From an uncultured Verrucomicrobiae bacterium (GTDB lineage Bacteria; Verrucomicrobiota; Verrucomicrobiia; Chthoniobacterales; JAFAMB01), in assembly GCA_963837955.1 (NCBI GenBank), contig CAWIPH010000002.1, positions 128,001-192,000 of the forward strand: a DNA stretch of 64,000 nucleotides, given 5' to 3'. The notes under the pieces are model-generated. The model searched no databases and was not told where the DNA came from. It saw only the letters and a list, made by a program, of their open reading frames with translations. Below are positions 15,863-32,092 of the stretch, piece after piece. Made by a program: the position numbers and the translations under genes. Each line of letters opens with the position of its first letter. Position 1 is the first letter of the stretch.

Positions 15863-16963
15863 ATGCCCCCCGGCGCCGCTATTTCAACCCCGCAATCGCG
15901 AATCACCCTCAACGATATCGCAGAACATGCCGGAGTCTCTCGCGCAACCGTTTCGCTAGTCTTGCGCAACATCCCATCCGTCGCAGCCGGCACCCGACGA
16001 CGGGTCCAAAACAGCATGCGGGAACTCGGCTATGTTTATAATCGCGCTGCAGCCAGCCTCCGGACCCAGCGATCACACGCGATCGGATTAATCGTTTCCG
16101 ATATCGCGAATCCATTTTTCGCCGAAGTCATCGTTGCTATCGAACGCCGGCTCGATCTTGCGGGCTATGTAACTCTTCTTGGCAATACATCCGAAGACGC
16201 GGAAAAAGAGAATCGGGTCTGGAGAACCATGCACGAGTTTCCGGCAGATGGTTTACTGATTTGTCCAACTTTACGACCAGACGACGAACCTGGCCCAGCG
16301 CCGGGCGTTCCAACCGTCGCGTTCGCTAGATTTCTTTCCGGTGTCGACTTTGTGGGGGCGGATAATGCAGCTGGCGCAGAAATGGCGGTGAAACACTTGC
16401 GGTCCATTGGCCACCGGCGAATCGCGTTTTTAGGAGGGAACCCTCAGCGATCGACTGGGCGGGAGCGCTATCGCGGTTATGTGGCGGCTCTCCAATCATT
16501 TGGACAGACTGTTAATGAGTCGCTCGTGGTTCCCACGCTCCCGAATCGAGCGGGCGGCCGTGAAGGATTAAGCCGGCTGTTGGAACAAGCAGAAGCCCCG
16601 ACCGCCGCCCTTTGCTTCAACGATGTGGTAGCTCTCGGAGCCATCGAGGCGTTGTACCAGCATCGGAAAACACCTGGCGTGAACTTCGGCATCGTCGGCT
16701 TCAATAACATCGCGGAAGCGGCCCAGAGCCATCCCGGTTTGACCACCATCGATACCTCTCCGGCGAATTTGGGTGAAGCGGCTGCAGATCTGCTTCTTCA
16801 GCGGATCGCAGCGCCCGACGCGCCGATTCGGCGAATTATTCTAGAACCACGTTTGATCGTCCGAGCATCATGCGGTGCTCAGGCGTCTTCCCTTGGTTCC
16901 TCCGGCAGGTCTTTGCGCGCCGCCGATCGTGAGGATCCGACCTCGCCCCACAGACAGGTATGA
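15863..16963 (+). CDS. LacI family transcriptional regulator
   Basis: HTH 'TLNDIAEHAGVSRATVSLVL', hinge 'YVYNRAAASLR', sugar-binding domain. Confidence 0.95.
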   Translation: MPPGAAISTPQSRITLNDIAEHAGVSRATVSLVLRNIPSVAAGTRRRVQNSMRELGYVYNRAAASLRTQRSHAIGLIVSDIANPFFAEVIVAIERRLDLAGYVTLLGNTSEDAEKENRVWRTMHEFPADGLLICPTLRPDDEPGPAPGVPTVAFARFLSGVDFVGADNAAGAEMAVKHLRSIGHRRIAFLGGNPQRSTGRERYRGYVAALQSFGQTVNESLVVPTLPNRAGGREGLSRLLEQAEAPTAALCFNDVVALGAIEALYQHRKTPGVNFGIVGFNNIAEAAQSHPGLTTIDTSPANLGEAAADLLLQRIAAPDAPIRRIILEPRLIVRASCGAQASSLGSSGRSLRAADREDPTSPHRQV

Positions 16964-17331
16964 GCGTCAACATAAGAGGAACGATATGTGCCCAGAGTCG
17001 TCCCGGCTTGTCCGCCGTAGCCAGGAGGGCGAAGGAGGAAGGGACTCAATGAAAGTAGCCCAGTACGAAGTGCTGGGATGGCGTTCAAAAAAAGGGACCC
17101 GTCCCGGACGGGACGATCGAGGGTTGCTTACGCTGGTGAAGCTGCATACGAGAGAACCAGGGGCCAGGACACTTCTATCGTCCCTGCCGGGACGGACGTC
17201 TTTTTTGCATTATTTCCCAGCACTTCGTACTGGGCTACTTTCATTGAGTCCCTTCCTCCTTCGCCCTCCTGGCTACGGCGCACAAGCCGGGACCAATCCT
17301 CTGCGGATGCTTCTAAGCCTTCTGTTGAAGC
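16964..17331. mobile_element. Composite MITE-like element (GCGTCAACATAAG termini enclosing a family C REPIN and two mini-elements)
   Basis: GCGTCAACATAAG at 16964 and CTTCTGTTGAAGC at 17319-17331; the interior is a long imperfect palindrome. Homologous copy at 59864..60180. Confidence 0.8.
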
Positions 17332-17383
17332 AGATGCACGGACGCGGCGACGCGGTCGGACAAGAGTCAATCCCTCCCAGAAA

Positions 17384-18409
17384 ATGAGCACTAAACAAGA
17401 AAAACTACGTTGGGGTTTGATTGGTGCGAGCGACATCGCTGAAACCCGGATGATTCCCGCTATTAATGCCCAGCCCGATAGCATGGTGCACTCGGTGGTA
17501 AGCGGAAACGCTGAATACGCCAAATTGTACGCAAAGAAAAACTCGATTCCCAAGGCGCACCAGAATCTGGAGACGTTCCTGGCGGATCCCAATCTCGACA
17601 TTGTGTACATCAGCAGCACGAACGAAAAACACCTGGAACAAGCGTTGTCGGCTATTCGGGCGCGCAAGCCGGTCCTCTGCGAGAAACCCTTGGCTTTGAA
17701 CCTGACGGATGCGCGGGAGATGGTGACCGCCGCCGCTCGAGCAGGGCTACCGTTCGGTACTAATCATCATTTGCGCTGTGCGCCGACCCATCGAACCCTG
17801 CGGCGACTCGTTCAGGAAGGCGCCATCGGCCAACCTCTCGCGGCCAGGGTTTTTCATGCTGTATACCTTCCGCCTCGGCTCCAAGGATGGCGCTTGGATA
17901 ATCCTGCCGCCGGTGCCGGAGTAACCCTCGACATCACTGTGCATGATGCTGACACACTGCATTTCGTTCTCGGTGTGCGAGCCGAAGAGGTCATCGCCCA
18001 ATCAGTGAGCCAAGGACTTGGCCAAGGCGGAGTGGAGGACACCATCATGGGCGTCATCCGTTTCGAAGGAAATATTCTGGCGCAGTTTCATGATTCTTTC
18101 ACCATCCGCCACACTTCGACCGGCCTGGAAATTCATGGCACCGAGGGATCCTTACTGGCGACCGACGTAATGACGCAAGAACCGGTCGGACGAATCGTGC
18201 TCCGTCGCGGAACCGACGTGACGGAGATTGATCCTGGTCCTCGCGAAGACCTTTACTCATTCGCGGCGCAGCATTTCAATGCTGCCGCCCAAGGAGAGGG
18301 TCATCCCGCCGCAACCGGAGAGGATGGAATCCGATCTTTGGCCGTCGCCTTAGCGGCCGTAGAATCAATCAAAACCGGCCAACGCGTGAAGGTACATTAT
18401 GACGTGTGA
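17384..18409 (+). CDS. afr: Gfo/Idh/MocA oxidoreductase, 1,5-anhydro-D-fructose reductase-like
   Basis: 'RWGLIGAS', 'LCEKPLA', 'GTNHHLR', 'AARVFHAVYLPPRLQGWRL', 'LDITVHDADTL' and 'ATGEDG' closely match my recollection of Sinorhizobium Afr. Confidence 0.85.
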   Translation: MSTKQEKLRWGLIGASDIAETRMIPAINAQPDSMVHSVVSGNAEYAKLYAKKNSIPKAHQNLETFLADPNLDIVYISSTNEKHLEQALSAIRARKPVLCEKPLALNLTDAREMVTAAARAGLPFGTNHHLRCAPTHRTLRRLVQEGAIGQPLAARVFHAVYLPPRLQGWRLDNPAAGAGVTLDITVHDADTLHFVLGVRAEEVIAQSVSQGLGQGGVEDTIMGVIRFEGNILAQFHDSFTIRHTSTGLEIHGTEGSLLATDVMTQEPVGRIVLRRGTDVTEIDPGPREDLYSFAAQHFNAAAQGEGHPAATGEDGIRSLAVALAAVESIKTGQRVKVHYDV

Positions 18410-18521: not shown

Positions 18522-20111
18522 ATGCCGCGATCCAAGCTGATTTCTTTTGAACAAATTGGTGGTCTGATTCCGAACGAGGCAGTCGTCACGGTCAGCTCGT
18601 CCAGCGGTCTCGGGTGTCCGGATGCCACTCTCCGGGCAATTGGAGAGCACTACGCGGAGCATGGCTCGCCCAAAAATCTGACCACCCTGCATCCCATCGC
18701 TGCCGGAGACATGTATGGAATAGCTGGCATTGACCACTTGGCGCGACCGGGACTTCTGAAGCGCGTCTTGGCCGGCTCATTGCCGAGCGGGCCTTCGTCA
18801 CTCCCGAGTCCGAAAATCTGGCAAATGATCTTCGATGAACAGGTGGAGGCGTATAACCTGCCCAGCGGTATCCTATTTCATATGCATCGCGAGGCTGCTG
18901 CGGGCCGCCCCGGCATATTGACCAAGGTCGGGTTGGACACATTCGTCGATCCGAGGCGCCAAGGTAGTGCGATGAACGAGCGGTCGCCCCGAGATGTCGT
19001 GAAGGTAGTCGAATTCGAGGGCGAAGAGTGGCTGTTTTTCAAATCGATCATACCCCAGGTGGCAATTATTCGGGCGACCACGGCCGATGAGAAAGGCAAT
19101 CTCACGATGGAACATGAAGGTGCGTATTTGGGCGTATTAGATCAGGCGCTCGCGGTACGCAATCACGGAGGGATAGTGATCGCTCAGGTCAAACGTGTCG
19201 CAGCATATGGGACTCTGAAACCGCAGGATGTGAAAGTTCCGGGAATCCTGGTTGACTATATTGTAGTCGATCCAGAACAGCGGCAGACCACGCAGACCGA
19301 TTATGATCCGGCGATCAGTGGTGAGATTTTCCGACCGCTGGACGCGTTCGAACCGGTAGATTGGAACGTCGACAAAGTAATCGCCCGGCGGGCAGCGTTA
19401 GAGTTGCACCGAGATGACATCGTCAACTTGGGCTTTGGCATCAGCGCTCTGGTCCCCCGAATCGTCTTAGAGGAGGGGAAACACCGCGATGTGACTTGGG
19501 TGATAGAACAAGGGCCGGTGGGCGGTGTGCCGCTTCTTGGATTTGCCTTCGGCTGTGCGTCCAATGCGGATGCTATTCTGGCATCGCCCGACCAATTCAC
19601 GCTGTATCAAGGAGCAGGGTTCGACCGCAGTTTTCTATCGTTTCTTCAGGTCGATGGGGACGGCAGCGTGAACGTGTCCCGCTTGGCGGCACGACCGCAT
19701 GTGACTGCAGGCGCCGGTGGGTTTATCGATATCACTGCGGCTGCCAAAGCCATTGTCTTTTGTGGGTATTTCACTGCAGGCGGATTAGATCTCAGGCTCG
19801 AGAATGGCCGGCTGCGAATCGCGAAAGAGGGGAAAAACCGGAAGTTTGTATCGGAAGTGGAACATGTCACGTTCAGTGGACGTCGGGCCCGAGAGAATGG
19901 GCAGAAAGTCATTTATGTTACCGAGCGTTGCGTGCTGCGCTTGGGAAACGAGGGCCTCGAAGTATTTGAAATCGCCCCTGGAATCGATTTGCAACGAGAC
20001 GTTCTGGAACAGACCGATACTCCACTGCGAGTAGCGAAGGATCTAAAGGTCATGGAGGAACGGCTATTTCGGCCGGAACCTTTCGGCCTGGAACTCGGAC
20101 CGGAGCCCTAA
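18522..20111 (+). CDS. Acyl-CoA:acetate/3-ketoacid CoA-transferase (YdiF/propionate CoA-transferase type, fused subunits)
   Basis: 'TKVGLDTFVDPR', 'IIRATTADEKGN', 'VNLGFGI', catalytic 'IEQG', 'GAGGFIDI', 'YVTERCV'. Confidence 0.92.
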   Translation: MPRSKLISFEQIGGLIPNEAVVTVSSSSGLGCPDATLRAIGEHYAEHGSPKNLTTLHPIAAGDMYGIAGIDHLARPGLLKRVLAGSLPSGPSSLPSPKIWQMIFDEQVEAYNLPSGILFHMHREAAAGRPGILTKVGLDTFVDPRRQGSAMNERSPRDVVKVVEFEGEEWLFFKSIIPQVAIIRATTADEKGNLTMEHEGAYLGVLDQALAVRNHGGIVIAQVKRVAAYGTLKPQDVKVPGILVDYIVVDPEQRQTTQTDYDPAISGEIFRPLDAFEPVDWNVDKVIARRAALELHRDDIVNLGFGISALVPRIVLEEGKHRDVTWVIEQGPVGGVPLLGFAFGCASNADAILASPDQFTLYQGAGFDRSFLSFLQVDGDGSVNVSRLAARPHVTAGAGGFIDITAAAKAIVFCGYFTAGGLDLRLENGRLRIAKEGKNRKFVSEVEHVTFSGRRARENGQKVIYVTERCVLRLGNEGLEVFEIAPGIDLQRDVLEQTDTPLRVAKDLKVMEERLFRPEPFGLELGPEP

Positions 20112-20122: not shown

Positions 20123-22363
20123 ATGACGTCGGTTCCCCCCATTGTCTTTACTCCGGCAGAGGCGAATACGCTGGCTGCGATCCTGGAACGTCTCTTCCCG
20201 GCCGATGAAAATGGGCCGGGAGCGACTGAAATCGGTGTGCTCGAGTACTTGGATCGAGCATTAAGCGGCCCTTACGCGGAAGCCCGCGACACTTATCGGC
20301 TCGGCTTGTTCGCGATTGATCAGGCGAGCGTGAACCGGTTTCAAACCGGCTTCGCCCACGCGTCGGTGAATCAGCAAGATGCCCTGTTGGCTGAATTGGA
20401 GGAAGGCAGCGTCAAAGAGTTCAGCGCGGTAGCTCCAAAAGAGTTTTTCGAGCTCGTCAGGACGCACCTACAGGAAGGTTTATTCTCCGACCCGTGGTAC
20501 GGCGGTAACCGCAACAAGGCAGGCTGGAGAGTTCTGGGACATCCTGGTGTTTGGCTGGAGAACAGTGCGGAAGAAAATCTCTGCTCGGAAGCGGTCGACA
20601 AAGGGGGCGTGATCCAATCGTTAGCGGATATCGAGCTGCCAAAACCGAAATCATCGCGTATCCCGAACTATAATCCGCAACGCGGCTCTGCCGATCCCCT
20701 ATCGGACGTTGACATAATATTGGTGGGAGCGGGATCGATGGGGTCGATTGTCGCGCCGATATTCGCGAAATCGGGACTGAAAGTGATTGCGTTTGAGCCG
20801 GGACCATTTCGGACCCAAGTCGATTATCTGCCTGATGAACTGGGGGCAGCTTATTACTGCCGAGCAACCATGGGGCCGAAGTTTGCCAACGAGATTCCCC
20901 GCTGGCGGCGGAACGAAGGCGAACCGACTGCAGCCGCAACCTTCTCGCTTGGCCGCATGATGAACAGCGTTGGAGGCTCAGTGATTCATTACGGAGCGTG
21001 GTTGCGCCGATTTCATCCCCACCATTTCCGGACGCTCTCTCACGTCAAGGAGCGATGGGGGACGACGGTTCTTCCAGAAGGTTGTCGATTGGCGGATTGG
21101 CCGGTCTCCTATGAGGAACTTGAACCGTTTTATACCCGGCTGGAACACGAGATCGGGGTTGCCGGCGACGAGACAAATCCATTTCTCTCGCGGAGCAAGC
21201 CATTGCCGATGCCGCCAATGCGCCCATTTCGTCTAGGGAACTTTTTCAGTGATGCCACGCGCCAGATGGGGCTGCATCCACATCCCGTCGCCGTCGGAGT
21301 CAACACCCTACCGTATGGTGGGAGACCTGCGACGACCAACAGCGCCTGGAGCAATGGATTCGGATCCTGCACCGGAGACAAATGGGATCCATCTCTCACT
21401 GCGATTCCGGAAGCCCTCGCAACCGGCAATCTTGATTTGCGCACGGGCTGCCGCGTGATCCGGATTCTCACGGATCGTGACGGACATGCTAGTGGGGTTG
21501 AATACATTGATCCACTAGGCCGACGGAAAATCCAAGAGGCGCGCACAGTCATTCTTTGCGCTTATACCTTCGAAAATTTGCGGCTCTTGTTTCTGTCCGG
21601 AGACGGTTCGCATCCAAACGGTCTGGGAAATAATTCCCATCAGCTCGGTCGCTATTTCATGACCAAGATGTTCGCGCACGTTGACGGCTTTTTCCCGGAG
21701 ATCAATTTCAATCGCCATACCGGTCCGGCTGCGCAGGGCGTTGTCCTCGATGACTTTTTGGCGGCGGACTTCGAATCCGTCCAACACGGGTTTATCGGTG
21801 GCGCTACTTTAGGTGCCGAGCAACAATTCTTGCCGATTCAGATCAGCCGCGAAGCATTGCCACCGAGCGTGCGGCGTTGGGGTAAACCCTACAAAGATCA
21901 TCTCCGGCAATGGCAGCACTTTGGGGTGGTGCGGATCCAGCCCGACACACTTTCGTACGACAACAACTTCATCGATATCGATCCCCGTCACCGCGATCGG
22001 AGCGGAGTCGGAATGCCCGTGATTCGCATTACCTATGATATGAGAGAGAACGAGCAGCGTCTGGCGGCATGGATGGAGGCGAAAGCGGAGGAGGTCTTAC
22101 GAAAAATGGGCGCTACTGCCACCTGGCGAGGGAAACGATTTACCGGAGTTGGCAGCAGCCACGACTTTGGTGGTGCAAGGATGGGAGAAGACCCAGGTGT
22201 CTCAGTGCTTGATCCGCAATTGCAGGTTCATGATACGCCTGGGCTCTACGTTTTTAGCGGCGCGGCGTTCCCGACCTGTCCAGGTATCAATCCAACCCTA
22301 ACGCTAATGGCTGTGTGCGTTCGTGCTGCCGAACAGCTGGTGAGGAAGCTGAGAGGGAAATGA
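20123..22363 (+). CDS. Fusion of gluconate 2-dehydrogenase subunit-3-like domain and GMC flavoprotein
   Basis: N-terminus 'LAAILERLFPADENGPGA..YLDRAL..EGLFSDPWYGGNRNKAGWRVLGHPG', then 'ILVGAGSMG', 'VGGSVIHY', 'DWPVSYEELEPFY', 'HDFGGARMG', 'NPTLT'. Confidence 0.88.
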   Translation: MTSVPPIVFTPAEANTLAAILERLFPADENGPGATEIGVLEYLDRALSGPYAEARDTYRLGLFAIDQASVNRFQTGFAHASVNQQDALLAELEEGSVKEFSAVAPKEFFELVRTHLQEGLFSDPWYGGNRNKAGWRVLGHPGVWLENSAEENLCSEAVDKGGVIQSLADIELPKPKSSRIPNYNPQRGSADPLSDVDIILVGAGSMGSIVAPIFAKSGLKVIAFEPGPFRTQVDYLPDELGAAYYCRATMGPKFANEIPRWRRNEGEPTAAATFSLGRMMNSVGGSVIHYGAWLRRFHPHHFRTLSHVKERWGTTVLPEGCRLADWPVSYEELEPFYTRLEHEIGVAGDETNPFLSRSKPLPMPPMRPFRLGNFFSDATRQMGLHPHPVAVGVNTLPYGGRPATTNSAWSNGFGSCTGDKWDPSLTAIPEALATGNLDLRTGCRVIRILTDRDGHASGVEYIDPLGRRKIQEARTVILCAYTFENLRLLFLSGDGSHPNGLGNNSHQLGRYFMTKMFAHVDGFFPEINFNRHTGPAAQGVVLDDFLAADFESVQHGFIGGATLGAEQQFLPIQISREALPPSVRRWGKPYKDHLRQWQHFGVVRIQPDTLSYDNNFIDIDPRHRDRSGVGMPVIRITYDMRENEQRLAAWMEAKAEEVLRKMGATATWRGKRFTGVGSSHDFGGARMGEDPGVSVLDPQLQVHDTPGLYVFSGAAFPTCPGINPTLTLMAVCVRAAEQLVRKLRGK

Positions 22364-22719: not shown

Positions 22720-23490
22720 ATGAACGATTCGACCAAAATTCAGATTTTCGCGGAAGCCCCGATTGCGCGGGTGACATTGCATCGACCGGAAAAGCTAAAC
22801 GCTCTGGATCCGGAGATGCTGACGGCCTTGGAAACCGGGTTGAGTCTGCTGGAGGAGCGGAGGGATATCCGGATAGTGATTCTCCAAGCGAGTGGAGAAA
22901 AAGCTTTCTGCGTGGGCGCCGATATCAATGCTTGGACCGCTTTGACCCCGTTGCAGATGTGGTCCGAATGGATTCGACACGGGCACCGCGTTTTTTCTCG
23001 GCTGCATCAATTGCGGCAGCCAGTCATTTGCGCGATTCAAGGTTTGGCATTTGGCGGCGGTCTAGAACTGGCGTTGGCCTGCGACATCCGCGTTGCTGCC
23101 GAGACTGCGAGGTTTGCCATGCCGGAGGTCAAGTTGGGTACGGTGCCAGGTTGGGGAGGGACTGCTCGTCTGCCGGAGCTGATTGGCAAGGGTCGAGCGC
23201 AACAAATGATCCTATCGGGAGAACCGATCACTGCCCACGTGGCGGAACGGTGGGGTCTAGTAAACGAAGTAGTTCCGATAGACCGATTGAGCGCACGAGT
23301 CGAAGAACTGGCAAACCGGATAGCCGCAAATGCGCCGGTCTCGGTGCAAACCGCTAAGCAGTTAGTAGCCGGCTCCAATGCAGTAACTCTGGAGTCGATC
23401 GCTGCTGCTACGAATGCTTTCACCCAAGATGCCGCGGAAGGATTAGCGGCTTTTCGCGAGAAACGTAACCCCAACTTTCAAGGCCTATGA
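22720..23490 (+). CDS. Enoyl-CoA hydratase/isomerase (crotonase) family protein
   Basis: 'RPEKLNAL', 'AFCVGADI', 'GGGLELALACDIR', 'MPEVKLGTVPGWGGT'; both catalytic Glu positions are present. Confidence 0.95.
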   Translation: MNDSTKIQIFAEAPIARVTLHRPEKLNALDPEMLTALETGLSLLEERRDIRIVILQASGEKAFCVGADINAWTALTPLQMWSEWIRHGHRVFSRLHQLRQPVICAIQGLAFGGGLELALACDIRVAAETARFAMPEVKLGTVPGWGGTARLPELIGKGRAQQMILSGEPITAHVAERWGLVNEVVPIDRLSARVEELANRIAANAPVSVQTAKQLVAGSNAVTLESIAAATNAFTQDAAEGLAAFREKRNPNFQGL

Positions 23491-24998
23491 ACCAACCTCC
23501 TTCGAAACCGTTTCAGTACCAATTATGGATCAATGGAAAGGAAGCAACATCCAGGTCCGGAAAGACGTTTGATCGGCGCAGTCCGGCTCACGACGTAGTG
23601 GTTGGCGTTTATCCGCTGGCCGCCAACGAAGACACTGATCTCGCGGTGGCTGCTGCCCGGCATGCATTTGATACGGGACCGTGGCCAAAACGTTCGGGGG
23701 CCGAGCGCGCGGCCTGCCTGGCGAAGTCGGCTGCACTCATCCGGGCAAACGCAGAGGAATTGGCACTGATCGAGACGCTGGAAAGCGGAAAACCGATCGG
23801 CCAAGCCCGAAACGAGATGGAATGGGCGGCCGGAATTTGGGACTACGCGGCGGCCTCTTGTCGCAACCTTGCTGGAGATACCTACAACTCTTTGGGAGAA
23901 CAGATGCTCGGGCTAGTGGTACGCGAGCCGATTGGGGTGGTCGGTATGATCACTCCTTGGAATTTTCCGCTGTTGATCATTAGTCAGAAATTGCCTTTTG
24001 CTTTGGCCGCTGGTTGTACCTGCGTGATTAAACCGAGCGAACTGACTCCTGGTACCACCTTGCGGTTGGGGCCATTGCTCGCGGAAGCGGGAATCCCTGC
24101 CGGCGTTGTCAATATTCTGAGCGGCTATGGCGATCCGGTTGGCCAACGGCTTAGCTCCCATACCGATATCGACATGATGTCATTCACCGGCTCCACCGAG
24201 GTCGGGAAAATGGTCGTCGAAGCTTCTCGCTCAAACCTGAAAAAAGTTGGGCTCGAACTCGGGGGCAAGAATCCTCAAATCATTTTTGCCGATGCTGACT
24301 TAGAGGCTGCCCTTGATGCCGCCGTATTCGGCATTTGCTTCAACATGGGAGAGTGCTGCAACAGTGGGAGCCGCTTGTTAGTGGAGCGCTCGATCTACGA
24401 CAAATTCGTCGAGCGTTTGATCAGCCTCACGCGAGAAGTACAAGTCGGCGATCCTTTGGACGAAAATACCCAAGTTGGTGCAATCGTGAATGACGAACAA
24501 CTCGACAAGATCCTTCACTATATCGCCGACGGTCAGCGGTCCGGAGCGAATTTGCGATCAGGCGGACGACGGTTGAAGAGCGTTGCTGGCAGGTTTGTTG
24601 AGCCGACGATCTTCTCCGATGTCCGTCCGGATATGCCGATTGCGCGAGAAGAAATTTTCGGACCGGTTCTTTCGGTGCTGCCTTTCGATCACGCGGACGA
24701 GGCGATCGCGATCGCGAATAGCACGCCGTACGGATTATCGGCCGCGGTCTGGACTCGAGATTTGGATCGAGCCTTCTCTGTCAGTCGAGGTGTACGGGCC
24801 GGAACGGTCTGGATCAATACCTTCATGGAAGGACCGGCTGAGCTGCCATTTGGCGGATACAAGGAAAGCGGCTTAGGCAGGGAACTGGGCAGGTCAGCGA
24901 TCGAGGAGTTCACAGACCTTAAGACCATTCAGGTGCATTTCGGCCCGCGAACGGGTTGGTGGGTCAAACCGGGAATCGGCAAACCAGAAGAGAAATGA
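23487..24998 (+). CDS. NAD(P)-dependent aldehyde dehydrogenase, L-sorbosone dehydrogenase-like
   Basis: 'ITPWNFP', 'FTGST', 'LELGGKNP', catalytic 'GECC', 'EEIFGPV'. 'FDRRSPAHDV' and 'GDTYNSLGE' resemble sorbosone dehydrogenases. Confidence 0.92.
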   Translation: MNQPPSKPFQYQLWINGKEATSRSGKTFDRRSPAHDVVVGVYPLAANEDTDLAVAAARHAFDTGPWPKRSGAERAACLAKSAALIRANAEELALIETLESGKPIGQARNEMEWAAGIWDYAAASCRNLAGDTYNSLGEQMLGLVVREPIGVVGMITPWNFPLLIISQKLPFALAAGCTCVIKPSELTPGTTLRLGPLLAEAGIPAGVVNILSGYGDPVGQRLSSHTDIDMMSFTGSTEVGKMVVEASRSNLKKVGLELGGKNPQIIFADADLEAALDAAVFGICFNMGECCNSGSRLLVERSIYDKFVERLISLTREVQVGDPLDENTQVGAIVNDEQLDKILHYIADGQRSGANLRSGGRRLKSVAGRFVEPTIFSDVRPDMPIAREEIFGPVLSVLPFDHADEAIAIANSTPYGLSAAVWTRDLDRAFSVSRGVRAGTVWINTFMEGPAELPFGGYKESGLGRELGRSAIEEFTDLKTIQVHFGPRTGWWVKPGIGKPEEK

Positions 24999-26146
24999 AC
25001 CATCCCCTCGGAATCGAACAACTGGATGATGCCGCGCTTCCCGATCTGCGCCGCCGCGCGGAGACGACTTTGGATTTTGCAGGGAAACAGATCCGCCAAT
25101 TGATTACGCGTTACCCGGATTACTTCCCTTTATTTACTAAGAGCGGAAAATGGCAACACGATCGCGAAGCCTGGACCAATTGGTGCGAGGGCTTTCTGGG
25201 TGGAATGCTCTGGATTCTCGCGCGCCATCGAGAGGATCGCTGGTATCGCGAGCAAGCGGAGCGCTACTCACTCTTAATAGAACACAGGAAAACGGATCGG
25301 ACCGTTCATGATCTGGGCTTTCTTTTTCTTCCCACTTGGAAGGTCTGGTATGAGCTAACTGGCGATCCGGCAAAGAGACAGGTGGTGATCGATGCGGGCC
25401 GCACGCTGGCTTTGCGTTTCCAGGAGAAAGGGCGCTATCTCCGCTCGTTCGTGGCACCGGAAAGCCTGTTCATCGACATCATGATGAACGTTGGACTGAT
25501 TTTCTATGTAGCCAAAGAAACCCAGGACGATGCCTTGTGGAGAATCGCGGTTCAGCATTGTTTGACCACCAGACGCTATTTGGTCCGTGGTGACGGCAGC
25601 ACCGCACATGAAGGAATTTTTGATCTGAATACAGGTGAATTTCTGCGCCAATCGACACACCAGGGTTGGCGGAGTGATTCGAGTTGGGCTCGGGGCCAAG
25701 CGTGGGCAATATACGGCTTTACCACCGCCTACGAATTTACGAGCGACGATCGGTTTCTGAAAACGGCACAACAATGCGCCGATTTTTTTATCGATCGTAC
25801 GCCCCGACATGGTGTTCCTCCGAACGACTGGGAGCAACCCGCGCCGCCGCAACCTTACGAAAGTTCGGCCGCTGCCATTGCGGCACGCGGTCTGTTAGCC
25901 CTGAGTGAGGCCGGGAAGGACGCGGCGGCCGCGCAGGCTTACCGGGCCAGGGCGCATCGCATTTTAGAAACGCTGCTCGGCCCCGAGTTTTTGGCCGTTC
26001 AGACCACTGGCTGGGAGGGTATCCTCAAACACGGGATTTATCACGAGGGTAAGCAGCTGGGGGTCGATGAAAGCGTGATGTGGGGAGAATACTTTTTCCT
26101 TTCGGCGATTGATTCTTTGCTCGCCGGTTATGGAATTGATCGCTAA
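24995..26146 (+). CDS. Glycoside hydrolase family 88 (unsaturated glucuronyl hydrolase-like)
   Basis: 'WCEGFLGGMLW', 'HDLGF', 'IDIMMN', 'THQG..SSWARGQAWAIYGF', 'ESSAAAIAA', 'WGEYFF'; ATGA overlap with the ALDH stop. Confidence 0.9.
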   Translation: MNHPLGIEQLDDAALPDLRRRAETTLDFAGKQIRQLITRYPDYFPLFTKSGKWQHDREAWTNWCEGFLGGMLWILARHREDRWYREQAERYSLLIEHRKTDRTVHDLGFLFLPTWKVWYELTGDPAKRQVVIDAGRTLALRFQEKGRYLRSFVAPESLFIDIMMNVGLIFYVAKETQDDALWRIAVQHCLTTRRYLVRGDGSTAHEGIFDLNTGEFLRQSTHQGWRSDSSWARGQAWAIYGFTTAYEFTSDDRFLKTAQQCADFFIDRTPRHGVPPNDWEQPAPPQPYESSAAAIAARGLLALSEAGKDAAAAQAYRARAHRILETLLGPEFLAVQTTGWEGILKHGIYHEGKQLGVDESVMWGEYFFLSAIDSLLAGYGIDR

Positions 26147-26229: not shown

Positions 26230-27498
26230 ATGAAGAAGTTACCCCCCCAACTAGTCGGTTTAGCGCTTGCCGCGCTAGCCCTGATGCCCGCAGCGAGCAA
26301 CGCTGCCGGCGATAAGAAACTCGAGGTATTTTCCTGGTGGACCTCCGGCGGAGAAGCGGCCGCTCTCGACGCTCTCTTTAAGAACTACAAGGAGAAAGAT
26401 CCGGGTGTCGAAATCATCAATGCCACCGTGGCTGGTGGCGGCGGTTCTGCCGCACGCCCGGTGCTGCAAGCCAGGTTAGCTGGCGGCAATCCGCCCGATA
26501 CCTGGCAAACTCACCCGGGCTTTGAGTTGATCGACCAATATGTGGCTTCGGGATACTGTGAGCCGGTCACAGACATCTACACGAGCGAGGGCTGGAATAA
26601 AGTCGTCCCTCAAGGGTTGATCGATATGCTGAGCAAGGAAGGCAAAGCTTATTCGGTACTCTGCGGCGTGCACCGCGGCAATGTGCTCTGGTACAACAAG
26701 AAGCTGCTGGCGAAGAACGGCATCAAAGTCGGAGATAAGATGACTTTTGATGAGTTTTTTGCTGCAGCGGACAAGCTGAAAGCTGCGGGTGTTACTCCGC
26801 TGGCGGTCGGAGATACCGGTATCTGGGCGAGTGCACAGCTATTCGAGAACACCTTGCTCGGCGTTGTCGGCGCGCAAGGTTGGAAAGACCTGTTCAGTGG
26901 GAAGATGAGTTTTGACGATCCTAAGGTGAAGCAAGCTGCCACGCTTTACGGCAAGCTGCTTAAGTACCAAAATAGCGACCACTCGGCACTCTCTTGGGAC
27001 CAGGCGGTCAAAGCCGTCGAGGAAGGAAAGTGCGCGTTTACCTCGATGGGCGATTGGACGGTCGGCGAATTCGTCAAGGCAGGATTCAAACCGAACGAAG
27101 ACTTCGGCTGGGTTTCGCATCCGGGAACAGATGGTTCGTTTATCATCGTGGCGGACGGCTTTACCCTGGCTAAAGGCGCCCCGCACAAAGATGAAACTAT
27201 CGCGTGGTTGAAATCGATCGGGAGCAAAGAATCCCAAGAGGCTTTCAATCCTCTCAAAGGATCGATTCCGGACCGCACCGATGTTGATAAGAGCAAGTTC
27301 GGCCCGTACCACCAGTGGTCAATGGCTTCGTTCGCCAAGGACTCCTTGATCCCAAGCTGTGTGCATGGCGAAGCTGCTCCTGCGGCGTTCCAACAATCGT
27401 TGAACGACGCGGTCACCTCATTCGTAGCTAACCAAAACGTCGACCAATTTCTGTCTGCGTTGGTCCAAGCCGCGAAAGATTCGGGTATCACGAAGTAA
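26230..27498 (+). CDS. Carbohydrate ABC transporter substrate-binding protein (glucose/mannose-binding type)
   Basis: Signal peptide; 'LEVFSWWTSGGEAAAL', 'GNPPDTWQ', 'VHRGNVLWYN', 'MGDW', 'FNPLKGSIP'. Confidence 0.92.
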   Translation: MKKLPPQLVGLALAALALMPAASNAAGDKKLEVFSWWTSGGEAAALDALFKNYKEKDPGVEIINATVAGGGGSAARPVLQARLAGGNPPDTWQTHPGFELIDQYVASGYCEPVTDIYTSEGWNKVVPQGLIDMLSKEGKAYSVLCGVHRGNVLWYNKKLLAKNGIKVGDKMTFDEFFAAADKLKAAGVTPLAVGDTGIWASAQLFENTLLGVVGAQGWKDLFSGKMSFDDPKVKQAATLYGKLLKYQNSDHSALSWDQAVKAVEEGKCAFTSMGDWTVGEFVKAGFKPNEDFGWVSHPGTDGSFIIVADGFTLAKGAPHKDETIAWLKSIGSKESQEAFNPLKGSIPDRTDVDKSKFGPYHQWSMASFAKDSLIPSCVHGEAAPAAFQQSLNDAVTSFVANQNVDQFLSALVQAAKDSGITK

Positions 27499-27551: not shown

Positions 27552-27560
27552 TTCAGGCTG

Positions 27561-27615
27561 GGTAGGGACGAGCTCCGCTCGTCCGTCCGCCAGACGAGCG
27601 GGGCTCGTCCCTACC
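27561..27615. repeat. GTAG-type REP doublet
   Basis: GGTAGGGACGAGCTCCGCTCGTCC...GACGAGCGGGGCTCGTCCCTACC. Confidence 0.8.
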
Positions 27616-27621
27616 GGATTG

Positions 27622-28698
27622 ATGAAGATGAAAACTAGCGGCACGCCGATAGAAAAAACTCCGTCCAGCGGAAGCGTGCAAAACCGAGGGCCACGGGATC
27701 GAGGGCGAAAAGCGGGGCGGCGCGGATTCAACCAGGCCTGGCTTTCTCCGATCATCCTCACACCGACGATGATCGCAATAATCGTCTTCGTCTACGTCTT
27801 CATCGGAATCACGGTTTGGGTTTCCTTGTCCAAGTGGGGTACGCTCCGCATGAACCTGGACCTGCGCGATCCGTTCGGCTTTACCTATGTGCAGATGTTT
27901 GCGATGCCGCGTTGGCACGCGAACCTGCGGAATGTGGTGGTTTTCACGGTGCTGTTTTTAACTCTCTCCATGAGTCTTGGACTGGTTCTGGCACTGCTGA
28001 TCGACCGGAAGTTGATCGGTCACACGATTCTGCGGAACATCTTCCTATTTCCCTACGCACTTTCTTTCATCGTTACTGGGATTGCTTGGCGCTGGATCTT
28101 CAATCCGGAAACCGGAATAAATCTTCTGTTTGATGGACTCGGTATCAACCATCTCATTACCTCACTTGGTGGGCCGCCATTAAAGCCTGGATGGACCACT
28201 GATCCGGCGGTGCTCTTCTCCGTGAACGATTGGCTGGGGAACATCTTCCCTGCCGTAAAGGGTATGAGTATTCAGCTGGGCATTCCCTTAGCGATGATTC
28301 CAGTGGTGGTCGCGGCTGCCTGGCAGCTCAGCGGCTTTGCTATGGCCATGTATCTCGCTGGACTTGCTACGATTCCGAACGATCTGCGCGAAGCAGCGCG
28401 CATCGACGGAGCAACCGAAATCCAGATCTATCGGAAAGTGGTCCTGCCCTTACTGCAACCCGTGACAGTCAGCACGGCTATTATTCTGGGACATGTCTCG
28501 CTTAAGATTTTCGATCTAATTTTTGCGATGACCGGTACCGGTCCAGGGTTTGCCACCGATGTGCCCGGCATCTTTGTTTTTGACATGACGTTTAAGGCAA
28601 CCCGCTACAACCTTGGCGCCGCTGCTTCCGTCGTGATGCTCATCCTGGTGAGTCTGGTTATCGTTCCGTATCTCTGGGCCAATTTGAGACGTCGTTAA
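27622..28698 (+). CDS. Carbohydrate ABC transporter permease
   Basis: Multiple TM helices; EAA motif 'LREAARIDGA'. Start is uncertain. Confidence 0.92.
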   Translation: MKMKTSGTPIEKTPSSGSVQNRGPRDRGRKAGRRGFNQAWLSPIILTPTMIAIIVFVYVFIGITVWVSLSKWGTLRMNLDLRDPFGFTYVQMFAMPRWHANLRNVVVFTVLFLTLSMSLGLVLALLIDRKLIGHTILRNIFLFPYALSFIVTGIAWRWIFNPETGINLLFDGLGINHLITSLGGPPLKPGWTTDPAVLFSVNDWLGNIFPAVKGMSIQLGIPLAMIPVVVAAAWQLSGFAMAMYLAGLATIPNDLREAARIDGATEIQIYRKVVLPLLQPVTVSTAIILGHVSLKIFDLIFAMTGTGPGFATDVPGIFVFDMTFKATRYNLGAAASVVMLILVSLVIVPYLWANLRRR

Positions 28699-28706: not shown

Positions 28707-29567
28707 ATGAAAGCATTTCCGTTCTCATTGCCGAACCGAGAGTCGCTGCCAAAGACTACCTTGGATTACGTCAGCCTGGTTTTCCTTTTCCTCTGCATGC
28801 TCTTCTTCCTGATGCCGCTGTACGTCATGGTGGTGACCGGCATGAAGGATTCGACCAATGTCAGTCTATCGACGATGTGGAATCTGCCGACCCGGCTCAG
28901 CGGCGGCGGCTTCATGGAAGCGTGGCAGCGACTGTTGCCGAACTTAGGTAACAGCTTGATGTTAGCGATCCCGGCAACGGTGATCTCCTCCATTCTAGGG
29001 AGCATCAACGGATATCTGTTCGCCAAATGGAAGTTCCCAGGTGCCAACGTTCTTTTCGCGTTCCTGGTGTTTGGGATGTTCATCCCATACCAGAGTATCC
29101 TCATCCCGCTGATTCAGTGGCTGCAGTTCATTCATCTGTACGGAACAATTTGGGGACTAATCATTGTGCATGTGATTTACGGGCTGCCGATCACCAGCCT
29201 GATTTTCCGGAACTATTTCGCGAACTTGCCTGATGAATTATTGGAAGCGGCACGCATTGACGGTGCCGGTCTAGTGCGAATTTTTACGCGGGTCATGTTG
29301 CCGCTGGCGAAACCAGCCTTCGTCGTTGTCGGTATTTTCCAATTTACGAACATTTGGAACGACTTCCTATTCGGCGTGACGATCTTGCCGAATCCGCAAG
29401 CCCAGCCGGTAACCGTCGCGCTGAATAATCTCTCGGGTTCATATTCCGTCGATTGGAACGTCGTTATGGCCGGGGCAGTGGTGGTAGCGCTTCCGACTGC
29501 CTTGGTTTACATCTTCTTGGGCCGTTACTTCATGCGCGGATTACTAGCGGGCTCGGTCAAAGGGTAA
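28707..29567 (+). CDS. Carbohydrate ABC transporter permease
   Basis: 'ELLEAARIDGA', 'FTNIWNDFLF', C-terminal 'GLLAGSVKG'. Confidence 0.93.
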   Translation: MKAFPFSLPNRESLPKTTLDYVSLVFLFLCMLFFLMPLYVMVVTGMKDSTNVSLSTMWNLPTRLSGGGFMEAWQRLLPNLGNSLMLAIPATVISSILGSINGYLFAKWKFPGANVLFAFLVFGMFIPYQSILIPLIQWLQFIHLYGTIWGLIIVHVIYGLPITSLIFRNYFANLPDELLEAARIDGAGLVRIFTRVMLPLAKPAFVVVGIFQFTNIWNDFLFGVTILPNPQAQPVTVALNNLSGSYSVDWNVVMAGAVVVALPTALVYIFLGRYFMRGLLAGSVKG

Positions 29568-29606
29568 CCGGCTTTTTCCGAGGCGGCGTTTTACGATCAT
29601 TTGAGA

Positions 29607-31154
29607 ATGGAAACTTTCGATCTCGTTATCATCGGGACCGGGATGGGCGGAGGTGCACTGGCATATGCGTTGCGCAATTCCGGTCGAAAAATCCTCTTGA
29701 TCGAACGTGGGGATTTTCTCCCGAGAGAACCGGAGAATTGGAGTCCGGAGGCGGTGTTTGACGGCAAGCGATACAAGACGACCGAACTCTGGCACGATGA
29801 CGTTGGGAAACCATTTAGCCCTGGTGTGCACTATTTCGTGGGGGGAAACACAAAAGTCTACGGCGCAGCCCTTCCGCGCTTCCGCGAAGAAGACTTTGAA
29901 TCGCTAGAACACGAGGAAGGAACCTCTCCGGCCTGGCCGATCAAATACGGCGAGTTGTCGCCGTATTACGATCGCGCCGAAGAGATGCTATGGGTTCATG
30001 GGGAGGTCGGAAGCGATCCAACCGATCCGCCGCGGACCAAGCCATTTCCCTTTCCTGCGTTGGCCCATGAACCTTACATCGAAGATTTGCGGGCTCGACT
30101 GGCCAAGCAGGGTTTGCGCCCATTTTTTCTACCAATGGGGGTCGATTGGCGCGACGGAGGATTGTGTATTCGTTGTCGGACTTGCGACGGATTTCCTTGT
30201 CAGGTTGCTGCGAAAGCGGACGCCGAAACGAACTGTGTACGACCCGCTTTAGAGACTGGCTTGATCACGCTTTGGACTCGTAGTTTTGTGCGGCGGTTGC
30301 ACACGGATCCTTCGGGCCGGACCGTCGTTTCCGCAGAGATTGAGAAGGATGGACAAACGGAAGAGGTCCGAGCCGAGACCTTCGTCTTATCATGCGGTGC
30401 CGCGAATTCTGCGGCAGTCCTGCTCCGCTCCGCGAACAGCGCTCATCCGAACGGTTTGGCGAACGGCTCGGGATTGGTTGGCCGCAATTATATGGTTCAC
30501 AATAACACAGCACTGATGGCCATTGATCCGTTCCGGAAGAATCCGACGATGTTCCAAAAGACCATGGCTGTGAATGATTTTTATCTGCGCGGCGAAGGGA
30601 ACCATCCCTACCCGCTGGGAAACCTGCAACTGCTAGGCAAGCTGCAAGCAGGAATGCTCACGGCCAACCAACGGTGGATGCCGCGCTCGGTGCTGGCTGC
30701 TTTCACCGAGCGAAGCGTCGATTGGTGGGTGATGTCCGAAGATTTGCCGCGGCCGGACAATCAGGTGACTATCGATGGGAAGGGCGGGATCGTTGTTCAT
30801 TGGAAACCGACAAATCTCAAAGCGCACGCCCGACTCACTGAAGCCGGAACTCGCATGTTGCGTCGAGCCGGTTATTCCCTCGTGTTCACCCAACGCATGG
30901 GGATAGAAACCAACTCGCACCAGTGTGGCACCGCCCGATTCGGCTTAGACCCAGCCAGCTCTGTTCTTGATCCTTTCTGCCGAACGCACGACGTCAAGAA
31001 TCTGTTCGTTGTTGATAGTTCGTTTTTCCCATCGTCCGCCGCGGTGAATCCCGCGCTCACCATTGCCGCCCAAGCGCTCCGAGTTGCAGATCATCTGGCT
31101 GACCGAAGTCCGGCTCCGAGAAAGGCAGAGCAGCCGGTCAACCTTGCGCGATGA
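29607..31154 (+). CDS. GMC family FAD oxidoreductase
   Basis: 'IIGTGMGGG', 'VGGNTKVYG', Cys cluster 'CIRCRTCDGFPC', 'HQCGTARFG', 'VNPALTIAA'. Confidence 0.92.
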   Translation: METFDLVIIGTGMGGGALAYALRNSGRKILLIERGDFLPREPENWSPEAVFDGKRYKTTELWHDDVGKPFSPGVHYFVGGNTKVYGAALPRFREEDFESLEHEEGTSPAWPIKYGELSPYYDRAEEMLWVHGEVGSDPTDPPRTKPFPFPALAHEPYIEDLRARLAKQGLRPFFLPMGVDWRDGGLCIRCRTCDGFPCQVAAKADAETNCVRPALETGLITLWTRSFVRRLHTDPSGRTVVSAEIEKDGQTEEVRAETFVLSCGAANSAAVLLRSANSAHPNGLANGSGLVGRNYMVHNNTALMAIDPFRKNPTMFQKTMAVNDFYLRGEGNHPYPLGNLQLLGKLQAGMLTANQRWMPRSVLAAFTERSVDWWVMSEDLPRPDNQVTIDGKGGIVVHWKPTNLKAHARLTEAGTRMLRRAGYSLVFTQRMGIETNSHQCGTARFGLDPASSVLDPFCRTHDVKNLFVVDSSFFPSSAAVNPALTIAAQALRVADHLADRSPAPRKAEQPVNLAR

Positions 31155-32092
31155 AATTCGACGTCGCTACTTTCGGCGAAGCGATGGTGCTTTTCGCTCC
31201 GACAGAATCCGCTCTGTTGGAATCCGCCGAATCTCTCCACGCGTCAGTTGGCGGCGCCGAACTGAATTGCTCAATCGGTCTTGTCCGACTTGGGTACCAT
31301 GTCGGTTGGATCAGCCGATTAGGGAATGATCCTTTCGGCCACAAGATAATAAAGACCGCGCGTGGCGAGGGAGTCGACGTCAGTCGGGTCAAACTAGTGG
31401 ACGAAGCGCCGACCGGCGTGATGTTCAAAGAGGTGCGGCCCGGGAATGCCAGTCGAGTTTTTTATTACCGTAGGCGCTCGGCGGCGGCTGCGCTCGACCA
31501 GGACCAGTTTGCAGATGTGCAAGCTAAAGTGCTCTTTGTCACCGGCATTACGCCCGCCCTCAGCGACCAGAATCGTGCACTTACGGTCGCCGTGGTAGAT
31601 CAATTCCGGGCGAACGGAGCGTTGATCGTCTTTGACCCGAACATGCGGTTTCGACTTTGGGAGAAAGAAGCAGCAAGAACCGTCTTCATTGAGCTGGCCA
31701 ATCGGAGCGACGTCTTGCTTCCGAGCCTGGTCGATGCCGAGATTCTTTGTGGCAAAGGCAAGCCGGAAGCAATGCTCGATCGGCTTCGCGAATTGGGTCC
31801 GAGCCGGGTGGCCATTAAACTTGGCGAGGAAGGGGTTTTCTTTGCGGACGAGAAAAGCAGCGCGCACCTGCCCTGTTTTCCTGCCTCTGAAATCGACCCG
31901 GTGGGCGCGGGTGACGCGTTCTGTGCAGGCGTCATTTCCGGCCTACTCGACCATGCCCCTTTTGCGGAAGCGGTTAGGCGAGGCGCCGCTCTAGGTGCTT
32001 TCAGTGTCAGCTCACGGGGCGATTACGCGGGGTTACCAACGCGAAACGAACTCGATCGTTTCCTGGCCGGAGAGACAACGCAAGGGAGGTAG
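31151..32092 (+). CDS. PfkB family sugar kinase (2-keto-3-deoxygluconate kinase-like)
   Basis: 'FGEAM', 'GGAELN', 'YYRRRSAA', 'FDPNMR', 'DPVGAGDAF'. Confidence 0.9.
   Translation: MKFDVATFGEAMVLFAPTESALLESAESLHASVGGAELNCSIGLVRLGYHVGWISRLGNDPFGHKIIKTARGEGVDVSRVKLVDEAPTGVMFKEVRPGNASRVFYYRRRSAAAALDQDQFADVQAKVLFVTGITPALSDQNRALTVAVVDQFRANGALIVFDPNMRFRLWEKEAARTVFIELANRSDVLLPSLVDAEILCGKGKPEAMLDRLRELGPSRVAIKLGEEGVFFADEKSSAHLPCFPASEIDPVGAGDAFCAGVISGLLDHAPFAEAVRRGAALGAFSVSSRGDYAGLPTRNELDRFLAGETTQGR

Follow-up and report, generated by a model that had tools for sequence, protein, structure and literature searches.

Food and blood contain 1,5-anhydro-D-glucitol (AG) as a major polyol, and glucan lyases yield 1,5-anhydro-D-fructose (AF). 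A 1,5-anhydrohexitol can be neither phosphorylated at C1 nor isomerised, and its ring ether is inert. Here we describe an operon at positions 15863-32092 of a 64,000-nucleotide stretch of DNA (the window) from an uncultured Verrucomicrobiae bacterium, whose genome comprises 5.6 Mb in two contigs. The operon is built around an orthologue of the AF reductase Afr. We tentatively propose, at somewhat less than an even chance, that it encodes an oxygen-tolerant route for the cyclic-ether ("1-deoxy") hexoses AF, 1,5-anhydro-D-mannitol (AM) and probably AG.

The only worked-out bacterial breakdown of AG and AF is strictly anaerobic. As summarised in a 2025 review, the 6-phosphates of AG and AM are degraded by the glycyl-radical pathway of Ma et al. 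2024 (PMC12441222). Its presumed substrates, and the problem of opening a 1,5-ether, are the same as here, whereas the pathway as outlined in that review depends on phosphorylation by the phosphotransferase system and on oxygen-sensitive radical enzymes, and has nothing homologous to the window cluster. In Sinorhizobium morelense/meliloti, the AF pathway includes a reductase orthologous to that of the window (55% identity), and eight of the window genes recur there in matching order. The scheme published for it differs in that AM is hydroxylated at C1 to mannose, and the CoA-transferase (CoAT), crotonase, aldehyde dehydrogenase (ALDH) and GMC flavoprotein are given no part. This pathway with Afr was reportedly described by Kuhn, Yu and Giffhorn in 2006.

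Three further systems share features with the window cluster. Classical degradation of unsaturated uronates proceeds through unsaturated glucuronyl hydrolase (UGL, of glycoside hydrolase family GH88), KduI, KduD, KdgK and Eda. A full UGL active site, a kinase of the 2-keto-3-deoxygluconate (KDG) type and a 2-keto-3-deoxy-6-phosphogluconate (KDPG) aldolase, encoded in the genome and, in Embleya, beside GH88, are common to both. However, lyase, KduI and KduD are lacking in the window cluster, where the unsaturated ring would arise inside the cell by dehydration of a CoA thioester, and whereas the classical GH88 cuts a glycosidic bond, that of the window would cut a ring ether. Catabolism of 3,6-anhydrogalactose (anhydrogalactose dehydrogenase, anhydrogalactonate cycloisomerase, KDGal kinase, aldolase) follows a shared logic, in that an ALDH oxidises an ether-bridged sugar and the ether is opened to a 2-keto-3-deoxy-hexonate for a kinase and an aldolase; there, however, an enolase-superfamily cycloisomerase opens the ring of the free acid, with no CoA thioester, crotonase or GH88. 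The membrane-bound complexes of gluconate 2-dehydrogenase, fructose dehydrogenase and FAD-dependent glucose dehydrogenase (FAD-GDH) resemble one protein of the window in combining a GMC large subunit with a Gluconate_2-dh3 small-subunit domain. In those complexes the small subunit is separate and Tat-exported and is accompanied by cytochrome c, whereas in the window cluster the domain is fused N-terminally, with neither Tat signal nor cytochrome. The nearest precedent for CoA esters of sugar acids is the acyl-CoA route proposed for 2-deoxy-D-ribonate in Klebsiella michiganensis by Price et al. 2019 (PMC6365646). It likewise has a sugar acid as CoA thioester, a CoAT and a sugar-type gene cluster, but it runs through a CoA synthetase, a 3-hydroxyacyl-CoA dehydrogenase and a thiolase and yields acetyl-CoA along with glyceryl-CoA, and that paper's account of the route has no crotonase, GH88 or KDG (PMC6365646).

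The twelve genes of the window cluster all lie on the + strand and run in one direction. The original prediction, made from the sequence alone, listed the same genes with the correct order, coordinates and direction, and the several ATGA overlaps that it saw are real at three junctions: between the enoyl-CoA hydratase (ECH) and ALDH genes (23487-23490), between ALDH and GH88 (24995-24998) and between the second GMC flavoprotein (GMC2) and the PfkB kinase (31151-31154). No gene for an ATP-binding cassette (ABC) ATPase was found within the cluster.

15863..16963, + strand: LacI-family repressor, first gene of the unit (PF00356, Peripla_BP_1/3)
17384..18409, + strand: Afr-like reductase, Gfo/Idh/MocA (2GLX, 6.6e-110; 4KOA, 3.2e-108)
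18522..20111, + strand: fused family I CoA-transferase of the YdiF/propionate-CoA-transferase type (PF01144; 2AHU, E. coli YdiF, 7.4e-116)
20123..22363, + strand: Gluconate_2-dh3::GMC fusion, 746 residues (PF13618, PF00732, PF05199; 7W2J, 3.3e-37)
22720..23490, + strand: crotonase-family enoyl-CoA hydratase/dehydratase, ECH (PF00378, 197 bits; 5ZAI, 5.4e-61)
23487..24998, + strand: NAD(P)-dependent ALDH, sorbosone-dehydrogenase-like (PF00171, 566 bits; 3U4J, 2.8e-171; 7W5L, 1.2e-167)
24995..26146, + strand: GH88 of the unsaturated glucuronyl hydrolase type, cytoplasmic (PF07470, 44.5 bits; 1VD5, 9e-48)
26230..27498, + strand: CUT1 solute-binding protein (SBP) with signal peptide (PF01547; NCBIfam GlcS, archaeal glucose-binding, 4.6e-32, under cut-off)
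27619..28698, + strand: ABC permease 1, start codon uncertain (PF00528; GlcT-like 1.1e-29, under cut-off)
28707..29567, + strand: ABC permease 2 (PF00528; GlcU-like 1.2e-55, under cut-off)
29601..31154, + strand: GMC2, with the Cys cluster CIRCRTCDGFPC (PF05199, PF00732; FAD-GDH 6A2U, 7.1e-40)
31151..32092, + strand: PfkB sugar-acid kinase, KDG-kinase-like (PF00294; 4DU5, 2.7e-61; 1V19, 8.5e-47)

Predicted activities of the enzymes

The match of the reductase to the solved structure 2GLX spans residues 9-337, and the next family, 3EZY, is reached at only 1e-30. The motifs GLIGAS..IA, CEKP and DITVHD are identical in the alignment to 2GLX; we take the first to bind the nucleotide and the CEKP lysine and the DITVHD Asp and His to have functional roles, for which Dambe et al. 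in 2006 are said to be the source. By the strength of this match (6.6e-110), the kept motifs and a place in the operon that it shares with the Afr-annotated gene of S. meliloti, the window gene is a true Afr orthologue. Afr (EC 1.1.1.292) reduces AF to AM in an NADPH-dependent, manno-selective reaction, which is the activity predicted for the window protein.

The CoA-transferase consists of a TIGR02429 half (residues 16-249) and a TIGR02428 half (285-502), with Glu329 in IEQGP and GAGGF at 397, presumably the catalytic glutamate and the GxGGF motif. The crotonase has both catalytic glutamates, E116 (GGGLE) and E136 (MPEVK), each aligned with an identical residue in its best solved relative, the 3-hydroxypropionyl-CoA dehydratase 5ZAI. 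The ALDH carries ELGGK and GECC, and its relative 7W5L is an L-sorbosone dehydrogenase.

The best solved relative of the fusion, 7W2J, is the large subunit of fructose dehydrogenase. No RR motif of a twin-arginine translocation (Tat) signal was seen within its first 40 residues, and no cytochrome c gene lies within the cluster; the fusion enzyme is therefore probably cytoplasmic. We propose that it oxidises the C6 alcohol, and that GMC2 serves as a 1,5-anhydroglucitol 2-dehydrogenase. The PfkB protein scored 183 and 113 bits against the NCBIfam models NF040938 (KDG_KDGal_kin) and NF052444, respectively (curated equivalog cut-off 400 each, not reached). It carries the DPVGAGD motif and its best characterised relative is the solved Thermus thermophilus KDG kinase 1V19; it is KDG-kinase-like, with a putative specificity for KDG.

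The GH88 protein scores above the PF07470 cut-off (44.5 against 26.6 bits) and matches eight UGL entries below 1e-39. Aligned with the Bacillus UGL 1VD5, it keeps W42, D88, D149, H193, Q211, W219, R221, W225, Y338 and H339, while the position of W134 holds F; the entry of a D88N mutant confirms the register. We assume that D88 and D149 are the catalytic Asp pair and that the remaining kept residues belong to the -1 subsite, some of them binding the carboxylate, roles for which Itoh et al. in 2006 are reportedly the source. Given that the catalytic and -1-subsite residues are all kept, its substrate should be a free 4,5-unsaturated uronate, whose C4=C5 enol ether it would hydrate. No signal peptide was seen. 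Its Embleya homologue is 54% identical, but the GH88s encoded by 24 of 300 other genomes of the phylum reach only 29-35%, and the window GH88 moves with the operon. The association that marks a conventional UGL locus was looked for and not found: a scan of 17 proteins encoded within and beside the cluster revealed no polysaccharide lyase, KduI or KduD, and the Embleya locus has none either.

A candidate route to 2-keto-3-deoxygluconate

In the route that we propose, the sugar would be imported by the glucose-like ABC system, GMC2 would oxidise AG at C2 to AF, and Afr, whose activity is established for the orthologue, would reduce AF to AM. The fusion would then oxidise the alcohol at C6 to an aldehyde, from which the ALDH would produce 1,5-anhydro-mannuronate, and the YdiF-type transferase would turn this acid into its CoA thioester, making H5 acidic. 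The crotonase would take H5 together with the 4-OH to leave a 4-deoxy-4,5-unsaturated uronyl-CoA, with the enol-ether ring that polysaccharide lyases make, and the transferase would load this CoA onto the following molecule of substrate. GH88 would hydrate the free unsaturated acid at C5, whereupon the hemiketal would open and the ether be broken. Since C1 bears only hydrogens and no aglycone, the product would be a 2-keto-3-deoxy-hexonate and not the aldehyde 4-deoxy-5-hexosulose uronate, and KduI and KduD would thus be unneeded. The PfkB kinase would phosphorylate this acid, and the KDPG aldolase, encoded by a single gene elsewhere in the genome, would complete the pathway.

The configuration at C2 and C3 would matter for the product. 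Reduction at C1 turns the 4-deoxy-L-erythro-5-hexosulose uronate that derives from mannuronate into KDG. Because the ring-opened product of AM shares the KDG skeleton, the manno configuration would lead exactly to KDG and the gluco configuration to the L-threo isomer. That KDG would come only from the manno form would give a reason both for Afr, which makes the manno epimer, and for its partner GMC2, which would turn AG into AF. In the route so proposed, all enzymes of both clusters, that of the window and that of Embleya, would find a use, with none left over.

In its full form the proposal is held with a little more reserve and well short of even probability. It states that the CoAT and crotonase make a 4,5-unsaturated uronate in the cell, that GH88 is an ether-opening hydratase and that this is the first aerobic pathway for AG, AM and AF, yielding KDG directly. 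The module would possibly be a general, lyase-free means of breaking inert C1 linkages of hexopyranosides, with DUF993 as the proteobacterial substitute for GH88. The proposed route as such is supported by the absence of lyase, KduI and KduD, since an aglycone other than hydrogen would require KduI and KduD for KDG to be reached.

The original prediction had supposed that a sugar is oxidised to an acid, that the acid is dehydrated or its ring opened with the help of CoA, and that the resulting 2-keto-3-deoxy acid is phosphorylated. This outline, whose steps are all predicted, gains support from the placement of GH88 beside KDPG aldolase and PfkB in the Embleya and metagenome loci. As an interpretation it is only partly supported: synteny, co-conservation and the outline stand, but it left GH88 without a role and the rhizobial version has neither GH88 nor the kinase, so that the shared core could serve a somewhat different chemistry.

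Distribution of the gene set and competing explanations

A query with the fusion protein retrieved 19 genome loci, and in 17 of them, all from Verrucomicrobiota (Chthoniobacterales), the cluster genes are kept in order at 55-96% identity. GH88 is present in 12 of these 17; in four the sequence ends before its position, and one (L014) lacks it. An order-wide sample of 201 genomes comprised 23 from the window's family and 178 from 15 other families. Within the family, 15 genomes have orthologues of both GH88 and the CoAT, three of the CoAT only, none of GH88 only and five of neither, and no close orthologue of either was found in the 178 genomes of the other families. The two genes lie 5.7-8 kb apart on a single contig in 10 genomes. 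Of the three CoAT-only genomes, G350 breaks off at the edge of a contig, G467 has a completeness of 76% and G412 has a cluster without GH88. At the G412 locus (L109, G412:C12, 9379-19048), the fusion and the ALDH each match in two pieces, a pattern of either operon decay or assembly indels. Conservation of the gene set exceeds chance: 17 of the 19 loci preserve its order, and two further phyla show parts of it. The original prediction had named a lack of co-conservation as speaking against it, and the genes proved to be co-conserved.

The core of CoAT, ECH and ALDH with a GMC protein occurs in three phyla in differing gene orders (Verrucomicrobiota, 17 loci; Pseudomonadota, five; Actinomycetota, Embleya). 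The proteobacterial order, in S. meliloti, Microvirga ossetica, Rhizobium daejeonense and Paraburkholderia, is LacI-Afr-CoAT-ECH-ALDH-SBP-permease-permease-ATPase-(GMC)-short-chain dehydrogenase/reductase (SDR)-GMC, which bears out a similar rhizobial arrangement that the original prediction had named. Identities between the window and S. meliloti are 44% for LacI, 55% for Afr, 68% for CoAT, 42% for ECH, 55% for ALDH, 36% for the SBP, 33-47% for the permeases and 44% for GMC2; over the rhizobial operons the SBP is 34-36% and GMC2 44-48% identical. Compared with the rhizobial afr operon, the window adds GH88, the fused GMC and the KDG-type kinase, and is without DUF993, SDR and glycerate kinase. 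A full-length DUF993 gene (624 bits in S. meliloti) adjoins the proteobacterial operon, usually with glycerate kinase, and DUF993 accompanies the CoAT-ECH core in all five proteobacterial loci (L021, at 8478-9647 on the - strand, 624 bits to PF06187; L024; L106; L107; L108). DUF993 may be a non-homologous replacement of GH88; a full-text literature search found no mention of it.

The Paracoccus ferrooxidans pFER3 locus (L107) carries a CUT2 ABC transporter, a dehydrogenase, an ALDH, a choline-type GMC annotated "alanine-phosphoribitol ligase" and CoAT-ECH-glycerate kinase. Further genes encode an acyl-CoA dehydrogenase, an SDR, DUF993, a sugar-phosphate isomerase-like protein and electron-transfer flavoprotein (ETF) alpha/beta, and the whole looks like a beta-oxidation-style route for a sugar acid. 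This pairing of CoAT-ECH with acyl-CoA dehydrogenase, ETF and glycerate kinase favours an explanation in which the published scheme from AF through AM to mannose by C1 hydroxylation is complete and CoAT, crotonase and ALDH serve another substrate, such as a 3-hydroxy or deoxy sugar acid that is degraded in beta-oxidation-like manner to glycerate. The likeness of the crotonase to a 3-hydroxypropionyl-CoA dehydratase points the same way, as do the AF-AM-mannose scheme given in the review (PMC12441222) and the K. michiganensis deoxyribonate route, where CoA esters of a sugar acid end in glycerate (PMC6365646). Nevertheless, no P450 or other oxygenase was found in any of the loci examined (window, annotated rhizobial loci, Embleya). 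Afr overlaps or abuts the CoAT in rhizobia, a position kept across phyla, and thiolase, acyl-CoA dehydrogenase and glycerate kinase are all absent from the window cluster. We regard this explanation as very unlikely.

In Actinomycetota, Embleya sp. NBC_00888 (Streptomycetaceae) has a cluster ordered CUT2 binding protein (Peripla_BP_4)-ATPase-permease-ALDH-CoAT-ECH-GH88-KDPG aldolase (PF01081)-PfkB-GMC, which was retrieved via its GH88. Its GMC protein shares 49% identity with the choline-type GMC that the rhizobial operon encodes, and the transporter type points to a monosaccharide. Two routes fell at this locus or for want of a part in them. A hydroxycinnamate-type route, with a CoA ester, a hydratase/lyase and an ALDH acting on an aglycone, was dropped because the Embleya GH88 is flanked by Eda and PfkB; elimination from a 3-keto-sugar to 3-hydroxypropionate and glycerate fits the likeness of the ECH but leaves no role for GH88, PfkB and Eda.

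Two actinomycetotal metagenome-assembled genomes (MAGs; L016 1-3799 and L017 1592-4962) encode the fusion (60-61% identical) and, after it, a dehydratase of the enolase superfamily. The fusion of L016 comes behind an ALDH fragment. An MGH1-like glycoside hydrolase is encoded a few kb downstream. Given that these fusions sit with an ALDH and an acid-sugar dehydratase, oxidation of an alcohol to an acid by the fusion fits. The same loci place that dehydratase after fusion and ALDH, where the window has CoAT and ECH, which could mean that CoAT and ECH together are a CoA-dependent aldonate dehydratase: GMC and ALDH would make an aldonic acid from an aldose or osone, and its thioester would lose the 3-OH to give a 2-keto-3-deoxy acid, with GH88 feeding in a related side substrate. 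The GMC proteins do resemble FAD-glucose and fructose dehydrogenases, and Afr is said to reduce osones as well (Kuhn, 2006). Simple dehydratases exist for the common aldonates, however, which leaves the CoA detour without a rationale, and the tight translational coupling of ECH, ALDH and GH88 and the GH88-Eda-PfkB adjacency in Embleya put GH88 in the main line. This alternative, too, has little probability in our estimate.

A scan of metagenomes with a GH88 alignment yielded 80 loci of the subfamily at 57-85% identity. CoAT, ECH or ALDH adjoins GH88 in 33 of the 80, six of these having the order LacI-Afr-CoAT-ECH-ALDH-GH88-GMC2-choline-type GMC. An SDR gene lies directly 3' of GH88 in 21, and both arrangements occur in two; 28 loci have neither, 20 of them being too short to tell. 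Among loci without a recognised neighbour, L089 and L094 were scanned and were uninformative. KDG-consuming enzymes are encoded directly 3' of GH88 in Embleya and in the SDR-linked loci.

Pairs of genes were counted over 34 loci with CoAT and ECH, for description only: kinship links many of them, and for most the query was GH88 or the fusion. The fusion alone occurs in 19 loci, the choline-type GMC alone in 13 and neither in two; as none has both, the two proteins are mutually exclusive, which fits one shared role. GH88 and DUF993 are likewise never found together (GH88 only, 26; DUF993 only, five; neither, three), whereas Afr and GMC2 occur together in 18 loci (Afr only, four; GMC2 only, five; neither, seven).

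The SDR-linked loci bear on the possibility that the chemistry is as proposed but that its substrates are stable glucose or mannose glycosides, ordinary O-glycosides among them, the cluster then acting as a lyase-free, oxidative-eliminative "glycosidase". GH88 would free the aglycone and 4-deoxy-5-hexosulose uronate, and Afr or an SDR would reduce the latter towards KDG. Cleavage of glycosides is what GH88 normally does, CUT1 transporters such as that of the window often carry oligosaccharides, and the SDR that follows GH88 in 21 of the 80 loci is 40-50% identical to the SDR of the rhizobial operon. By its locus number, S. meliloti smc04396 is presumably the SBP gene of that operon. Induction of smc04396 by dextrin has been reported (PMC4960864). 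On the other side, KduI and KduD, which a gluco-derived product would need to reach KDG, are absent from the clusters, Embleya combines the lack of a reductase with a CUT2 transporter of the monosaccharide type, and a bona fide Afr orthologue would be left without an evident role. We consider the glycoside alternative unlikely.

In a quick tree of GH88, the proteins encoded beside CoA genes all fall outside a clade of 40 (SH-like approximate likelihood-ratio test, SH-aLRT, 97) that holds the SDR-linked and solitary copies. The unit of this sister clade (L045, L047, L055, L067, L095) is GntR-GH88-SDR-PfkB-KDPG aldolase-Oxidored_FMN (~490 aa), with CUT2, Opp-type or Liv-type transporters and without KduI; CoAT is added in L095 and L096, and ECH additionally in L095. 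It looks like another undescribed route to KDG. A sister clade in loci with SDR, PfkB and Eda, the kept UGL residues and an ALDH that could oxidise the aldehyde of a released keto-uronate would also suit a conventional GH88, for which lyase-derived unsaturated uronide oligosaccharides would be imported, with the CoA enzymes, ALDH and GMC proteins processing the released keto-uronate or a second sugar. This is again a highly improbable explanation: the core of CoAT, ECH, ALDH and GMC occurs without GH88 in all five proteobacterial loci, no lyase is encoded in or beside the cluster, the transporter of Embleya is of the monosaccharide type, and the role of Afr would go unexplained.

The route for AF, AM and AG that we propose has to be set against several observations that weigh against it. 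The established activity is that of Afr alone, for its orthologue, and every later step is deduced. Afr is absent from Embleya and from L005, L015 and L018. PfkB follows the cluster in only three genome loci (L002, L015, L020) and was not found in L007, L008 and L019, each with at least 1.3 kb of downstream sequence; the ALDH is missing from the fusion-type loci L048, L053, L056 and L057. Both GMC proteins group with secondary-alcohol or anomeric dehydrogenases and not with C6 oxidisers, the loci of the sister GH88 clade (GntR-GH88-SDR-PfkB-Eda-Oxidored_FMN) resemble conventional unsaturated-uronate modules, and the Verrucomicrobial and rhizobial SBPs are merely 34-36% identical. All five proteobacterial loci lack GH88 and PfkB and have DUF993, SDR and usually glycerate kinase instead. 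Their end-game looks different: by analogy with the diketo-hydrolase routes of fucose and rhamnose, the 2-keto-3-deoxy acid may be oxidised at C4 and then split into pyruvate and glycerate, which would give ring opening no assigned enzyme there. This proteobacterial group is the one with reported growth on AF. In the sole published aerobic scheme, as the 2025 review presents it, an unidentified P450-like enzyme hydroxylates AM at C1, which yields mannose (PMC12441222).

Regulation, inserted repeats and biological meaning

A perfect 14-bp palindrome, TTAGATCGATCTAA, lies at 15778..15791, 72 bp 5' of lacI, and is unique in the window at up to two mismatches. In 10 related loci (L002, L004, L007, L008, L009, L011, L018, L019, L020, L040) lacI is closely preceded by the 12-bp core of this palindrome, which additionally lies once inside L005. 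This phylogenetic footprint suggests that the palindrome is probably the LacI operator, from which LacI, upstream of its own gene, would probably repress the unit. Promoter and terminator scans gave counts not above those of shuffled sequence.

Dispersed repeats occupy two spacers of the operon, 16963-17384 and 22363-22720. The first, between lacI and afr, contains at 16995-17298 a palindromic element with 98-nt arms that are 91% complementary and an inner 33-nt pair; it recurs at about 40 other genomic places with 84-94% identity (91 matches, both strands counted) and looks like a dispersed repeat resembling a miniature inverted-repeat transposable element (MITE). The true start of afr is at 17384, and that of GH88 at 24995; the long open reading frame from 17078 is an artefact, a false 5' extension of afr, since it reads through this inserted repeat. 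The second, in the 357-bp gap between fusion and ECH (22363-22720, core ~22500-22650), has 29 other genomic matches at 70-93% identity, and the same junction in related loci measures only 6-20 bp. In the gap between the SBP and permease 1 (27553-27620), a long GC-rich inverted repeat, GGTAGGGACGAGC...GCTCGTCCCTACC, may be a stabilising hairpin within the operon.

The cluster is flanked upstream by a gene for a YccS/FUSC-family membrane protein (13389-15662, - strand) and downstream by one for a DUF1573 protein (33053-33712, + strand); in the loci compared, neither is conserved with the cluster. Parts of the core were also seen in an islet between dnaB and qorA of E. coli Nissle 1917 (L023, 7711-14873), which encodes LacI, a CoAT 64% and an ECH 49% identical to those of the window, a sugar-type transporter of the major facilitator superfamily and a 682-aa FAD_binding_2 oxidoreductase. 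A 3.4-kb query from this islet matched 827 of 5426 complete E. coli genomes, 280 of them over at least 80% of its length.

A full-text literature search found no paper on the function of CoAT, crotonase or ALDH beside afr, or on a link between GH88 and CoA enzymes. The original prediction had also named a full match of the set to a described pathway as speaking against it, and the same search found none. According to section 5.1 of the 2025 review, an oxidative pathway for AG "has not been described", and an aerobic enzyme system would be needed for a probiotic approach to the neutropenia of glycogen storage disease type Ib (GSD Ib) and G6PC3 deficiency (PMC12441222). The operon described here, from soil and freshwater bacteria of three phyla, is a candidate for such an aerobic AG route. 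If the proposal is true, it would provide functions for genes that have stood unexplained beside afr since 2006, and it would introduce two new enzymatic ideas, the dehydration of a sugar via its CoA thioester and the opening of a ring ether by a GH88 enzyme.

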